Positions 56,366 through 63,052 of a DNA stretch of 64,000 nucleotides are shown piece after piece; the first letter of the stretch is position 1; each line of letters opens with the position of its first letter. The DNA comes from Owenia fusiformis. Taxonomy: Eukaryota. Under the pieces are notes generated by a model. That model searched no databases and had not been told where the DNA came from. It saw only the letters and a program-made list of their open reading frames with translations. The position numbers and the translations under genes were made by a program. The stretch covers positions 1,984,001-2,048,000 of the forward strand of contig CAIIXF020000001.1 in the NCBI GenBank assembly GCA_903813345.2, written 5' to 3'.

Positions 56366-56439
56366 ATGTCATTCCATGGACTTAGCTATGATATTAGTGA
56401 TATACGCCTAAACATGGGCTCATCATTTGGGTACGCAAA
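56366..56439 (+). CDS. hb: Candidate proximal alternative first coding exon of hb (MSFHGLSYDISDIRLNMGSSFGYA-K)
   Basis: ATGs at 56366 and 56414 (aacATGg), open frame to donor aa|GTAAGT at 56440. Phase 2 matches the 58343 acceptor frame. CCAAT boxes and an Inr-like motif lie upstream. Confidence 0.5.
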
Positions 56440-58391
56440 GTAAGTCATTCAATATTATAAATGAATAATTATTGATATTAATAATACCGAATAATAATAA
56501 TGAAATTATTGTTGTTCTTATTTCAAACTATTTCCTGGCTTATTTTGGATTTTTGATGCTCTTGTATGAATGTGTTTTTTGGTTTATAAACAGAATATGG
56601 ACAGCATATAGATGTTACATCAATTTTTAAGAATTATATTGTGTTTAATGATCACAGATAAAAACACAGCTGGTAAATTGTACAAAAACAATTTTTATTA
56701 TTATTATATGATGGAGAAACTTTCCTGGCATGATAATTTCATATATTTTACAAACTGCACCAATTGACCTCAACTAAGTTTCTTCTGTAAATTCTTAAAC
56801 ATCTCATAAAGAAAAACTAGTGATTGCTGACTGATTGATTTATTAGGCTCCAGGAGTGATCATAATGACAGGTCCCCTGTTCTCCTATATAGGCAGGGGT
56901 TAATAGGTTACAACCCTGCAAGTAGTAACTATGAACCTAAAATATTAGAGCTTCCTTTCTACCTATAGCCTCCACAAAATTGTAATTGATTTTTCATGTT
57001 TTTTATCATGCTGTAAAATAAACCCCATAATTATAAGGCTAATGATACTAACTTTGACATAAAATTTGTACCTGATAACTCTCATGTTATTTTCACAGCT
57101 TGCTTTTCTGGTATTACCCTATGGTATTCTATTTACAGCAAGATCATGGCCCAAAATTACACTTTGCTTTTAGTAGACCTGAAGACGTGAATACCTAATG
57201 ACATTTTCTTGGAAAATTTTATTGAATCAAATTGATCTTGCTTGATGTTAATAATATTAACTTTTGTTTGTGAAATCATTTGTTCGCCAAAATTATTCTT
57301 GCTCAACACAGTTAAGAATGTTTGACTTGAATTTATGAATTAAAGATTTCCATAAAAAAATATTTTAATTTTTGCTTTTTGACATCAAATAATAGCCTAA
57401 TATTCTGAGCCATCATTATTTATGATTGTTAAACATACAAGCAATCAGTGTATCTAAATATTTTTTTCATCAAATACGTCAAGTGAAATATTGCTACCAT
57501 TGGGATGTTGCGTGGTTATTCTTAAAATAAAATTGACAAAATTGTTTTGTGTTGTAAAATCGTTATGATGCATCAGTGCTACTGTAAATCATTCATTATT
57601 AGAATGCAAATATTTTGTCATTGTTGCTCCATGCTTTAATATTACGGTTTTGTTATTTTGACATTCTTCCTGTGCGATTAAAAATACTCGTTTGAACACT
57701 TTGGTTACAGTATCAGAGAAAAGTAGGGTATATGAATCATATTATTATAAAAACAGTCAACTGTTATCATCATTAGCTAGAGACAATAACTTAAAAATAC
57801 TTTTACTATAACCTTTAAACTTTACTTGGTAGGAGGTGGTATCTCTTTAATTCTTTAAAATGATGAGTATTACACAGAAACATTTGAATTGCCAACTTAA
57901 TTTGCAAAATTATATCTGATAAATTCTGTAAGGCACTCTGGAAAACAGTTGGGAATGTCGGGGTGAGAAGAATAGGTTGATAAAATTAAATATGTTTTCT
58001 TTACATGTATATTCATTTGTAAAAACACTATTGTCTCTATTTTATATTCTGTTTAATTACATTTTGTGAAGAATTGTAAAATACTAACAGCTAAATAAAT
58101 AATATAGAGGACTAGAATTTATATGAATAAATCATTCATAAGCCTTCGATGATTTTATAAAAAGAACTTTAAAACTAATCATATTCAATTTGCAACACAA
58201 TAAAAAGTGAACTAATTGAATTCAGAGAGTTTCATTGAAGGCTGAAAACAACATCATCGTAGAGTAACAATGCATTATAAGGCAGCATTTGTGTTTATTA
58301 AGAACATTAATTAAATATGTTATTTTGTTTGTGTTTTTCTAGAAGTGATGCTGCTTGTCAGAATCAGGTATTTGTAATACGAGAAATCGGA

Positions 58392-59274
58392 ATGTCTTCA
58401 GAGGGCGCCACTACCACGGAGGTGAACCAGGGTTACCCTGGCAACGACTTCATGCACAGCAGCTCTAGCCATTCAGAGCACCCACATCCACAAGTGTCAG
58501 ACCCACCCAGCTCTAATGAATCAATGAGTCCACCTGAGCTTCGTGCCGCAGATGATATCACAAGTCCCGTCATGGAGAACGGAGACTACCAGAGTCCTAA
58601 CCCTAGTGCAGTGTACCGAGCAGAGGCCCGTGTGTTTCCTAATGAGAGAGCAAGCCAGGTCTACAATGAGATTGAGCAGAAGCTACGCGCTGATGGGGTA
58701 TCTACTGATCATGTAGTAGACAATATAGAGGGTTCAGAAAGACAGAGTGAATCAACAGAGCACGATCAGAGTGCAGAGAACATTTCATATCAAAAACATG
58801 ATCAAAGCAGTGAAGAAATTCCATACATGAAACACGCTCAGAGTCCAAATGACAATGCTTATCCAAAACATGACCAGAGCATTGATAATGTTTCATATAC
58901 GAAAAGTGATGTTCCTTCAAATTTCTCAGCTGAGCGTGAAGCCGAGAGCCCCGACTTGACAAGCCCTTTGGTGATGGCTGATCAAGACCGTGGAGGAAGC
59001 CCCGGGATGAGCTATTCCAGTGATACCCCCCATAATCACAGCATGTATGATGAAGATATGATGAGCGAGGACAGCTACACTCCCCCATCTTCTGTGGGTA
59101 GCGCCATGCAGATGAACCCAAGCCCTGGATCAATGTTGTCACCCAGAGGACCCGTTGGTAGTCCATGGAACCCAGAGGGCCAATACCCAGGGGTAGTTCC
59201 ACCAGGATTCCAGCACATGGTACCAGACGCAACTGGCAAAGAAATTTACTACTGCCATCTATGTAGCTACTCAG
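58392..59274 (+). CDS. hb: Hunchback, first common coding exon (exon begins at 58343; ATG at 58392). Disordered Ser/Pro/acidic N-terminus ending in the CxxC half of zinc finger NF1
   Basis: Acceptor tgtttttctAG (58341-42), long open frame ending ...KEIYYCHLCSYS, donor tcag|GTacta at 59275 (phase 1), which joins 60356 in frame to give CHLCSYSGNSKFHFNSHMNSH. The start codon is uncertain because 58343-58391 is also open in frame. Confidence 0.88.
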
Positions 59275-59539
59275 GTACTAAATCCCTTTCTTTGTATTTA
59301 TCGGTATGAACTTTTTTATCTTTCTGCATTTTAGTTAGCACCTTGAAGATTTCATTTAAGCTCTTTAGGTCCCATTTTTAGTTTGCTTGAATTAGAATAT
59401 TTCTTCTTTGATAGTTATAGAGTAAATTCAAGAATATAGAACAGTCTTATAGTTTCAAGATTGTTTCTTTAGATGATTAGTTGATTGAATGATTGCTTGA
59501 TTTTTCATTGTTTTCTGCATGATGACTTCACTATTGTAG

Positions 59540-59602
59540 GCCACTCTTCCAACGAATTGACAAGTCACATTGCTAAGCATGATAAGGATGAGATCAAACA
59601 TG
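59540..59602 (+). CDS. hb: Candidate 63-nt cassette exon encoding an alternative second half of zinc finger NF1 (G-HSSNELTSHIAKHDKDEIKH)
   Basis: ctattgtAG|GCCAC...AAACATG|GTaatt, phase 1 at both ends, no stop. Spliced to 59274 it gives C-x2-C-x12-H-x3-H with Leu at the canonical hydrophobic position. Confidence 0.6.
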
Positions 59603-60355
59603 GTAATTCACCCGCCTCTGCAAATAACAGAATGACCCATCCCTGGCTAATAACATTTATGTACTTGCATGCTAACAGTACATTATACCTATGTGTTATA
59701 CCCCCTAAAATGACTAATTGAATTTCAGGTCCCCATACTAATAATAAAAATGTATTTGGATGTCACGGGTAAACAATAATATGATGACCTTGCTAATACC
59801 TGAATAAGGGACCTGTCAACATTGGCTAACAACTGATCGAGGGATCAGTCAACATCTCCATGGAAAGATTAGTTTTCATAATTGACATTATTATAATGAT
59901 TACTTACTAACTTTTTAATTTTTCAGATTCATTGGAACATAGTCTTCACATTATGGTTCATTGTTTCATATTTATTATATTTTGTACCCATAACAGCCCA
60001 TCAGCATTAAAAGCTATTACAACTTTGACCTACATCTTTAAAATCATAAAATAACATTAAGTAACAATTATTTTATTGTGACATGGAACTAATTGATAGA
60101 AGTGAGTTAGATACTGATCTGGTTATGGAAATAAAATATATTTAATCATAGAACAGATTTAAAAAGTATAAAGACATTCTTATAGTATTAAGTACACAAG
60201 AAGACAATATATGATAATATGTGGCGTTCAATTCATTATTTATCAGGGCATGCAGAAATCGCATCTCTTAGTTAAGGCTGAAAGTCTGCAGTTGTACATA
60301 CCATCATATAAACAAAGGGAAACATTTAATTCATGTTCATTTTATGTATTTACAG

Positions 60356-60585
60356 GGAACTCTAAATTCCACTTCAACTCTCACATGAACTCCCACTTTG
60401 AACATAGATGTCCCCACTGTGACTACACATCTCGCACTGAAGGTCGTTTGAAGCGCCACATCAAAGATTTCCACAGTGATGACCCACCAGATAGCTTTTC
60501 TGGACAGCCACGTCACATCGTGCGTACTCCTGGACGACCCAAGGTGTTCCGTTGCAAGCAATGTGAATTTACATCTGTAGATAAG
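60356..60585 (+). CDS. hb: Hunchback coding exon: second half of NF1, NF2 (CPHCDYTSRTEGRLKRHIKDFH) and first half of MF1 (CKQC)
   Basis: Acceptor tatttacAG (60354-55), donor aag|GTatga at 60586 (phase 0). NF2 resembles the N-terminal fingers of non-Drosophila Hb proteins. Confidence 0.93.
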
Positions 60586-60829
60586 GTATGACTAAACATA
60601 AATAATGGCCTTGTGTTTTTTTTCTATTTCGTCACTATATAATTACTGTGTACTTTACCTTATTATCCCCCACAGTAATTTCTTTTGTTTACTAGTTTTT
60701 CTTTGCATTATTTATATGAATCATATCAATAGTTATGAAGTATTAAAAACCAGTGTCTTATGAAATATATCTTTTGTGATGCAAACCAAAGCAATTAAAT
60801 AATAAAATTGTAATTTTGTGTGATTGTAG

Positions 60830-63052
60830 ATTGAGTTTTGGGAGCATTCACGTAAACACATCAAGGCAGACAAGGTCCTCCAATGCCCCAAGTGTCCATT
60901 TGTCACCGAGTACAAACATCATCTAGAGTACCATCTACGTAATCATTTTGGATCTAAGCCGTTCAAGTGTCCAAAATGCAACTACTCATGCGTGAACAAG
61001 TCCATGTTGAACTCCCATCTTAAATCGCATAGTAACGTATACCAATATAGATGCGCTGATTGTACCTATGCTACCAAATACTGCCACAGCCTGAAGTTGC
61101 ATCTCCGCAAATATAACCACAAGCCAGCCACAGTCCTGACCACCGATGGCAGTCTACCCATGGATGGATCCGGTGATTTCAATCTTGTTGCTAAGCGTGG
61201 TCCCCCTAGAGGACCCAGGGGGATGAAGTCGGGCCAGGAGAGCAAGACGCCACCCCAAATGCCGATACCACCTGCAGGGTTAATGAACATGCCACAGATG
61301 TCAAAGGTTGTCCCACCTCACATGAACGCAAGGGTTGGTGGTATGATGCCTCCATTTTGGAACTTGATGCATATGAATGGGATGGCCCCTCCTCCCCTGA
61401 TCCCCATGCCTGGTATGATGCATCCATCCAATGAGAAGATGTTCGCAAAGTTGGCCGCCTCGTTACCTCTCAAATGCACCGTATGTGAGTTTGTTGGTGA
61501 ATCCCGTGAATCCCTCACTGAGCACATGCTGAAGGTACATGCAGCCGGTGAGAATTCAGATCTCCTGCGTATGTTTAATGTCTCCTCTGATTCGCTGATG
61601 GAAGAAGCCAAGAAGGCTGCAGAGATGGCAATCAAGACTGAACCCAAAGATGATGGTCCCACCCCCATGAAACAAAGCCCTGAGTCTATGCACCATCAGG
61701 CATCTCCTCGTGATGGCAGCTCTGCTCCCCATCTGTCTCCCCATGCTATGTACAGGTCCCCACCAATGGAGGCAATGCGCCACCATCTTCCAAGTGGAAT
61801 CACGGGTCTCAACAGTGAACTTGAAAGCCTGGCCAGAATGACCATGCAGCTCACAAAGGCAGAACCTAGAGCCCGACTTCCCATCCCTCAGCTACCTCCC
61901 CACATGATGCAGCAGCAACGTAGCCCTGCCGCCCCCATCCAAACCCCTCGTCCTCAGACCAACAGTGAGGCACCACTAGACCTGACAGCCAAGCCCAGAG
62001 ATGATGAACAGCCTTCCCCACGCCAGCCACATGATGATCAACCATCACCTAGATACCCACATGACATGAGGCACCAGCAGGAGACATACAGTTCAGGTGA
62101 TACATCTTTTGCTGCACATATGCTTGGCTTAGAGGGTTTGAAACGGGCTAGAGTAGAGGAGAAAGGTGGCATGAGTGAAGGGGGTGCTGGTTTTAATTCT
62201 GCTTCTTCTTCGGGGCTTGCTTCGCCTCCAGCTCGCAAACGCTCCCGCAAGGGAAAGGCTTACAAGCTTGACACGCTCTGCTTACGTCTTCAAGAGCGTG
62301 GTACTAACTCTCCCGAGGCTTCAGGTGATGAAGAGCCCCAGGATGCTGCTTCTGCTTCAGCTAGTCATAGTTCTACTAGTCAGACTAACACCACCATTCA
62401 CGCATCTAATCAGCCCTCTGCCATTTCAGGTTCAGAGGCAGAGTCTGACTCCAAGCCAGCCAACACCAGCTCTGATGAGCCTATTGATTATAACGAGATT
62501 CACAACAGTCTCAGTCAATTGAACAATGAGTCCCCAGAGGTTGGTGAGAAATTCAACCTTGCCCCTCGTGCGGCTACCAGTATTCGCAACCCCCTCTCCA
62601 TCAAGAATGCCCCCAAAGAGCCCAGCGCTGAGGAAAGTGCCGCTGAGGCTGCTGCAACTGAGGTCAAGCAGCACTATGATCATCGCAAATCTATGATCAT
62701 GCGCCACAAGGAGACAGAGGCTCCCATGAATGGACATCCCCACTACCCTCACACCCACCCCCATCTGCCACCACAACATCTCCAGAGGGAGCCACCAAGC
62801 ATGGGTGACGTGAATCAGAACCTGCATATGCTGTTAGCATCCAGTAAATTCCCCAATGGATTCCACCCAGCCAAGAATGGTGGTCGTTACGAGTGCTCCT
62901 TCTGTCACCTTGCATTCTTGGACTGTGTCATGTACACCATGCATATGGGTTACCATAGCAACAGGGACCCATTCCGATGTAACATGTGTGGGGTTCACAC
63001 CAAGGACAAAGTAGAATTCTTCTTACATATAGCAAGAGCTGCCCATGCGTAA
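60830..63052 (+). CDS. hb: Hunchback last coding exon: MF1-MF4 DNA-binding fingers, C-box, extra finger, PLDLT motif, basic box, two C-terminal dimerisation fingers, TAA stop
   Basis: Acceptor gattgtAG (60828-29). Translation gives [77 protein letters not shown], the diagnostic Hb central fingers. It also contains [12 protein letters not shown] and the C-terminal [32 protein letters not shown]. Confidence 0.97.

Follow-up and report, generated by a model that had tools for sequence, protein, structure and literature searches.

Can alternative splicing exchange the recognition half of a single zinc finger? This question is raised by the locus at the 3' end of the window, i.e., the stretch of 64,000 nucleotides of Owenia fusiformis DNA that is analyzed here as a whole. 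The original prediction, made from the letters of this stretch, held that the intron at 59275-60355 interrupts finger NF1 of Hunchback between its CxxC motif and its helix, and that a hidden cassette exon of 63 nt inside this intron could provide NF1 with another helix. Based on sequence similarity, the gene is identified as the hunchback (hb) orthologue of Owenia fusiformis: its 740-aa last exon is 100% identical to the nr entry 'Hunchback [Owenia fusiformis]' (P0001, 1112 aa), and after P0001 the best matches to this exon are spiralian Hb proteins. A Pfam scan places C2H2 fingers in exons 3 and 4, and a regular-expression scan recovers nine of them in the expected order NF1, NF2, MF1-4, ExF and CF1-2, named as in the hunchback evo-devo literature. 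The 56 kb upstream of hb (window 1-56000) contain three stop-free frames of at least 110 aa and look like a gene desert beside a developmental regulator. The composing parts of the gene are the following:

56366..56439, + strand: alternative upstream coding exon with its ATG at 56366 and a perfect donor AA/GTAAGT at 56440 (annotation isoform P0121)
58343..59274, + strand: exon 2, where the main start codon (58392; MSSEGATT..) and the N-terminal region lie
59275..59539, + strand: NF1 intron upstream of the cassette, including the cassette's pyrimidine-rich acceptor region (..TTTTCATTGTTTTCTGCATGATGACTTCACTATTGTAG)
59540..59602, + strand: cassette exon of 63 nt, encoding (G)HSSNELTSHIAKHDKDEIKH(G)
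59603..60355, + strand: rest of the NF1 intron, beginning at the cassette donor GTAATT and ending with the constitutive acceptor TTTACAG
60356..60585, + strand: exon 3, encoding the constitutive helix half of NF1 (NSKFHFNSHMNSH), all of NF2 and the Cys half of MF1
60586..60829, + strand: MF1-splitting intron of 244 nt (GT..AG), placed between the Cys and helix halves of this finger
60830..63052, + strand: last coding exon, with the MF1 helix, MF2-MF4, ExF, CF1-CF2 and the stop codon
62097..62429, + strand: annotated intron of 333 nt (111 aa; GT..AG) inside the last exon, spliced out in annotation isoforms P0122 and P0123

The interruption of NF1 was located exactly. Exon 2 terminates at 59274 (..TACTCAG/GTACTA), its end encoding the Cys half of the finger (YYCHLCSYS) and the first base of a Gly codon. 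Exon 3 starts at 60356 (..TTTACAG/GGAACT) and runs up to the donor AAG/GTATGA at 60586. Both introns in the finger region (59275-60355 in NF1 and 60586-60829 in MF1) separate a Cys half from a helix half. Since many gene models in other species begin at the MF1 helix (..EFWxHxxxHIK), the position of the MF1 intron is probably widely common.

Within the NF1 intron, the cassette at 59540-59602 has the acceptor ..CACTATTGTAG/GCCACT and the donor ..AAACATG/GTAATT. It thus combines AG/GT borders with phase 1 at both ends and a stop-free frame, just as predicted, and its splice sites are comparable to the constitutive ones. Inclusion inserts the 21 residues HSSNELTSHIAKHDKDEIKH between two Gly codons, and the frame stays open through the whole protein, with neither an in-frame stop nor a frame shift. 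A poison exon that would trigger NMD is ruled out, as there is no in-frame stop and the frame is kept. To estimate how often such an element arises by chance, the minimal finger-completing pattern was defined as AG..GT borders, in phase and open, with a hydrophobic residue at +10 and His at +13 and +17/18. This pattern occurs in 1.2% (n = 235) of 20,000 introns simulated with a Markov-1 model at matched length and composition and, outside hb, at two other independent sites in the real 64-kb window, counting both strands. Judged by sequence pattern alone, the cassette is only moderately unlikely. The bare 78-aa intron frame matched no Pfam family.

RNA evidence was sought in four of the 19 runs on offer (X1, X3, X13 and X17), which were mapped to 58800-61000. 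As X1 and X3 cover the introns evenly, they represent DNA. X17 is a stranded RNA-seq run, used as raw reads (around 6% of the run read), and every read has the orientation expected of + strand RNA. Its depth is around 30 in the exons flanking the cassette and falls after 59274, to 0.05-1 over 59275-59539 and 0-1 over 59603-60355, with values of about 1 in 59318-59465 and 59614-59687. The bin of the cassette (59540-59613) reaches a depth of 4.27, compared to 0.05 in the bin directly upstream and 1.0 downstream. Fourteen X17 reads span the skip joint 59274>60356, next to eight short overhangs at 59275 that continue into exon 3, and two X17 reads join the cassette donor (59602/3) to exon 3. The latter are tabulated separately because a common SNP at 60357 separates the two sides by a single letter. 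The upstream inclusion joint 59274>59540, on the contrary, is covered by fewer than three reads in X17 (three being the listing threshold), at the very position where depth steps from 0.05 to 4.27. For the MF1 intron, joint 60585>60830 is supported by 20 reads of X17 and also by the X13 RNA contig. This contig (5933 nt, depth 150) contains joints 59274>60356 and 60585>60830 and represents skipping only. Given the reads from the cassette donor to exon 3 and the sharp depth step at the acceptor, set against the skip reads, inclusion of the cassette is real but minor, at roughly 10-15% in the X17 run.

The few reads elsewhere in the NF1 intron indicate that some unspliced RNA is present. One X17 read passes the 59602 donor, with a depth of 1.0 in 59614-59687; it more likely represents unspliced RNA than a second donor. 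The same acceptor combined with a later GT (59678) would delimit a longer open cassette of 138 nt (59540-59677). Polymorphism between the window and the runs is dense over 58889-60961. X17 carries several fixed or frequent exon variants, among them 60357 G>A and 60363 T>C, both near the beginning of exon 3; 60357 G>A is synonymous, as it affects the third base of the split Gly codon. No variant is listed in the cassette among the four runs, and the NF1 intron (1081 nt) has 17 variant sites. By our own arithmetic, a stretch of 91 nt is expected to be variant-free by chance in around 22% of cases (about 1 in 4 or 5), so this absence is not significant.

The exon, announced as hidden, proved to be present in the public annotation. 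The 90%-identity cluster of P0001 contains three genome-annotation isoforms, of which CAH1772317.1 (P0123, 1021 aa) reads CHLCSYSGHSSNELTSHIAKHDKDEIKHGNSKFHFNSHMNSH, the exact predicted inclusion product. The methods passages of PMC9977687 describe the Owenia annotation as built from RNA-seq assemblies and ab initio models via Mikado, Augustus and PASA, and since it is RNA-seq-based, CAH1772317.1 is transcript-derived and independent of X17. The sequence of the cassette exon is already public in the Owenia annotation; the new part is its interpretation. Among the other isoforms, P0121 (CAH1772315.1, 1152 aa) has an N-terminus that is 40 residues longer and stems from the upstream exon: its peptide MSFHGLSYDISDIRLNMGSSFGYA(K) maps to 56366-56439 and joins the acceptor 58342/58343. 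P0122 and P0123 remove 62097-62429 and thereby lose a conserved box of 17 residues that is nearly invariant across 23 aligned Hb proteins. The literature searched for an NF1 splice form of hb, or for half-finger swapping as a mode of zinc-finger diversification, yielded nothing relevant, in agreement with the original prediction, which knew of no such description for hunchback. In the matched passages of the one Owenia paper naming hunchback (10.1101/2020.11.15.378034), 'isoform' and 'splic' do not occur. The cassette exon exists, its donor is used, and it represents an annotated minority form.

What does inclusion do to the finger? In the skip form, NF1 reads CHLCSYSG-NSKFHFNSHMNSH, followed by four residues and the CxxC of NF2. 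In the inclusion form it reads CHLCSYSGHSSNELTSHIAKH, again with the spacing C-x2-C-x12-H-x3-H; counted from the second Cys, Tyr occupies +2 and Leu +10. Here the original prediction (exact spacing, Leu at the canonical position, a different helix and 21 additional residues) was confirmed, and CAH1772317.1 matches it. Helix positions -1, 2, 3 and 6 are occupied by H, N, E and S in the cassette versus N, F, H and S in the constitutive finger. Inclusion also stretches the linker to NF2 from four to 25 residues, and the old helix half lies within it. Over positions 1-23 of the 23 of PF00096 (zf-C2H2), the cassette finger scores 16.5 bits compared to 17.6 bits for constitutive NF1, both as isolated peptides and both under the gathering cut-off of 25.2 bits. 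Against PF13909 (zf-H2C2_5), the cassette finger reaches 22.2 bits (E = 1e-4; cut-off 27). The His pair of the cassette may serve as a zinc ligand and, if NF1 binds DNA at all, the exon may act as a putative switch of its specificity.

Structure prediction of the inclusion isoform did not bear out the swap. When P0123 was modelled by AlphaFold2 with an alignment of 23 sequences, residues 298-313 came out as coil (pLDDT below 50) and the original helix was kept at 319-331, with a mean pLDDT of 77 for block 321-330. This run did not predict a beta-beta-alpha fold using the cassette helix; since the insert is missing from every aligned homologue, it is biased against the swap. The single-sequence run on P0123 has a mean pLDDT of 36.6 and leaves the conserved middle fingers unmodelled as well, and is hence uninformative. 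Of the idea that splicing switches between two finger identities, the alternative exon, the exact spacing and the near-equal Pfam scores have thus held, whereas the swapped helix does not appear in the AlphaFold2 model. The finger-identity switch is plausible but unproven.

We then compared NF1 among relatives. With Owenia as the reference, the constitutive NF1 helix shows no difference in Phoronopsis and hardly any in Capitella, two brachiopods, an onychophoran and a priapulid; judged by these sequences, it is ancient and deeply conserved. A number of 191 Hb-type proteins were checked, including all listed isoforms of 10 mollusc/brachiopod clusters. NF2 is recognizable in 110 of these, and the other 81, without an NF2 pattern match, are uninformative. 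The canonical gap of 21 residues from NF1 to NF2 is present in 105 of the 110 proteins, four lack the CxxC of NF1 (truncated models), and a gap of 42 residues occurs in P0123 alone. An insertion in NF1 is thus absent from the other Hb proteins with a recognizable NF2 (110 compared). Word-based protein searches with the 78-aa cassette frame returned nothing among 90%-cluster representatives of 138-2000 aa or 42-137 aa; as only these representatives were covered, the Owenia isoform itself was missed. Beyond Owenia, the nearest Hb matches are 54-67% identical over the conserved part, and no close relative of Owenia appears in the protein collection searched.

The origin of the cassette can be approached through its likeness to the other fingers. 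The motif G-x-S-x3-L-T-x-H, said to be common to the cassette half and ExF, does hold. ExF is the best match of the cassette helix among the Owenia fingers, with a BLOSUM62 score of 25 and 5/12 identities, versus scores of at most 15 for each of the eight others, the constitutive NF1 helix included. Across 1487 fingers of 190 other proteins, ExF-like fingers score 20.0 on average and the rest 9.6, the ExF classifier being an ad hoc pattern. Two tick NF1 fingers are also among the 15 best distinct fingers matching the cassette helix. The suggested duplication of a half-finger exon found no backing at the nucleotide level: local alignments against nine finger-coding segments (exon 3, ExF and seven others) gave p = 0.06-0.99 in comparison to shuffles, and blastn-short of 59440-59700 against the window gave chance matches only. 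Any duplication would therefore not be recent. Tandem exon duplication or mutually exclusive exons are likewise not supported, as these comparisons show no detectable nucleotide similarity to a neighbouring or parental exon.

The minority status of the inclusion form and the finger-like reading of the cassette can be explained in several ways. The most skeptical one denies the exon altogether and attributes the signal to pre-mRNA or genomic DNA reads in combination with an annotation artefact. An X17 depth of about 1 elsewhere in the intron (59318-59465 and 59614-59687), i.e., some unspliced RNA, is what it would lead one to expect, yet it fails to account for a depth that changes from 0.05 to 4.27 exactly at the acceptor, for two reads spliced from the cassette donor to exon 3 and for an independently assembled transcript model that includes the cassette. 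We consider this explanation very improbable and largely refuted. An exon can also be real and functionless, through low-level, lineage-specific exonization (splicing noise or a young exon), in which case its finger-like reading would partly be coincidence. Two inclusion versus 14 skip junction reads and a cassette depth of around 4-5 versus 30 are in line with this, as are the lack of evidence for conservation in the protein searches of other species, the occurrence of the minimal pattern in 1.2% of random introns and the variant-free cassette of DNA runs X1 and X3, which is not significant (22% by chance). Mere noise sits less well with a preserved, stop-free frame, a C2H2 match over the whole profile and a likeness to ExF helices in particular, nor would it predict an exon that is seen in two independent data sets and has splice sites comparable to the constitutive ones. 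A functionless exon seems somewhat unlikely.

Another possibility is that the exon is real and its insert forms a disordered loop or disrupts the finger. The original His pair would then be used across a spacer of 33 residues, or NF1 would be inactivated, and the outcome would be a modulatory or dominant-negative-like isoform with an altered NF1-NF2 geometry. The alignment-based AlphaFold2 model, with its low-confidence coil for the cassette and its retained helix at 319-331, points in this direction, although the alignment behind it lacks the insert and biases it. The deep conservation of the original helix half, from Phoronopsis to a priapulid, and the minority of the inclusion form agree with a disruptor as well. 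A mere spacer, however, has no need for exact spacing, Leu at +10, His-x3-His and a full-length C2H2 match, and we regard this explanation as unlikely. As the best explanation, we tentatively favor, at somewhat less than even confidence, that the cassette, a genuine, frame-preserving, minor alternative exon of Owenia hunchback, supplies a second helix half for NF1. Such a half-finger swap is the most economical reading of the sequence, based on spacing and profile matches only.

Because the constitutive intron lies exactly between the Cys and the His/helix halves of NF1, inclusion sets the second helix half (HSSNELTSHIAKH) directly after the CxxC hairpin, with the spacing of a canonical finger. 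Zinc may then be coordinated by this CxxC together with the nearer His pair that the cassette brings in, which would expose a different helix surface of NF1, and the original helix half (NSKFHFNSHMNSH) would become part of the linker between NF1 and NF2. NF1 would thereby change its identity and the NF1-NF2 pair its geometry, with a possible effect on the binding of nucleic acids or proteins. It is conceivable, if rather doubtful, that a regulated 'half-finger swap' evolved in Owenia from the modularity offered by introns between Cys and helix halves (NF1 and MF1), with a second, ExF-like helix and a re-spaced NF1-NF2 pair yielding an isoform with distinct nucleic-acid or partner specificity. 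Should the swapped finger form, it would represent a compact way to re-aim a single finger in a classic developmental regulator and would offer a handle on the role of the conserved NF1-NF2 pair. Should it not form, what remains is a commonplace minor isoform of a single annelid gene.

It is well established that alternative splicing can alter which fingers a C2H2 factor contains; in the cases compared here, it adds, drops or exchanges complete fingers or residues of the linker. In spiralians and other protostomes, Hunchback orthologues have the same finger architecture as in Owenia, and those of Phoronopsis, Capitella, brachiopods, an onychophoran and a priapulid share the NF1 helix as well, whereas the insertion in NF1 is found in Owenia alone among the Hb proteins compared. 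Ikaros (IKZF1), a Hunchback-like factor, undergoes alternative splicing of the exons of its N-terminal DNA-binding fingers, by which whole fingers are gained or lost. As in Ikaros, the N-terminal finger set of Owenia Hunchback is remodelled by splicing and the C-terminal finger pair remains constant; unlike in Ikaros, the cassette provides only a new helix half to an existing Cys hairpin. Isoforms of Drosophila CF2 add a complete extra finger, and the +/-KTS forms of WT1 add three linker residues via an alternative donor. These cases likewise show how a small in-frame insertion within a finger array alters finger content (CF2) or inter-finger spacing (WT1) and thereby the binding of the factor, but the Owenia insertion lies inside one finger, where it would replace the helix half and orphan the old one. 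Finally, alternative 3' terminal exons let Drosophila lola, Broad, fruitless and tramtrack exchange complete pairs of fingers. They resemble Owenia hunchback in that one gene gives rise to isoforms with different C2H2 recognition surfaces, with the difference that in Owenia an internal cassette would swap half a finger. A cassette with a helix half only can work in this way because the intron falls exactly between the zinc-binding halves of the finger.
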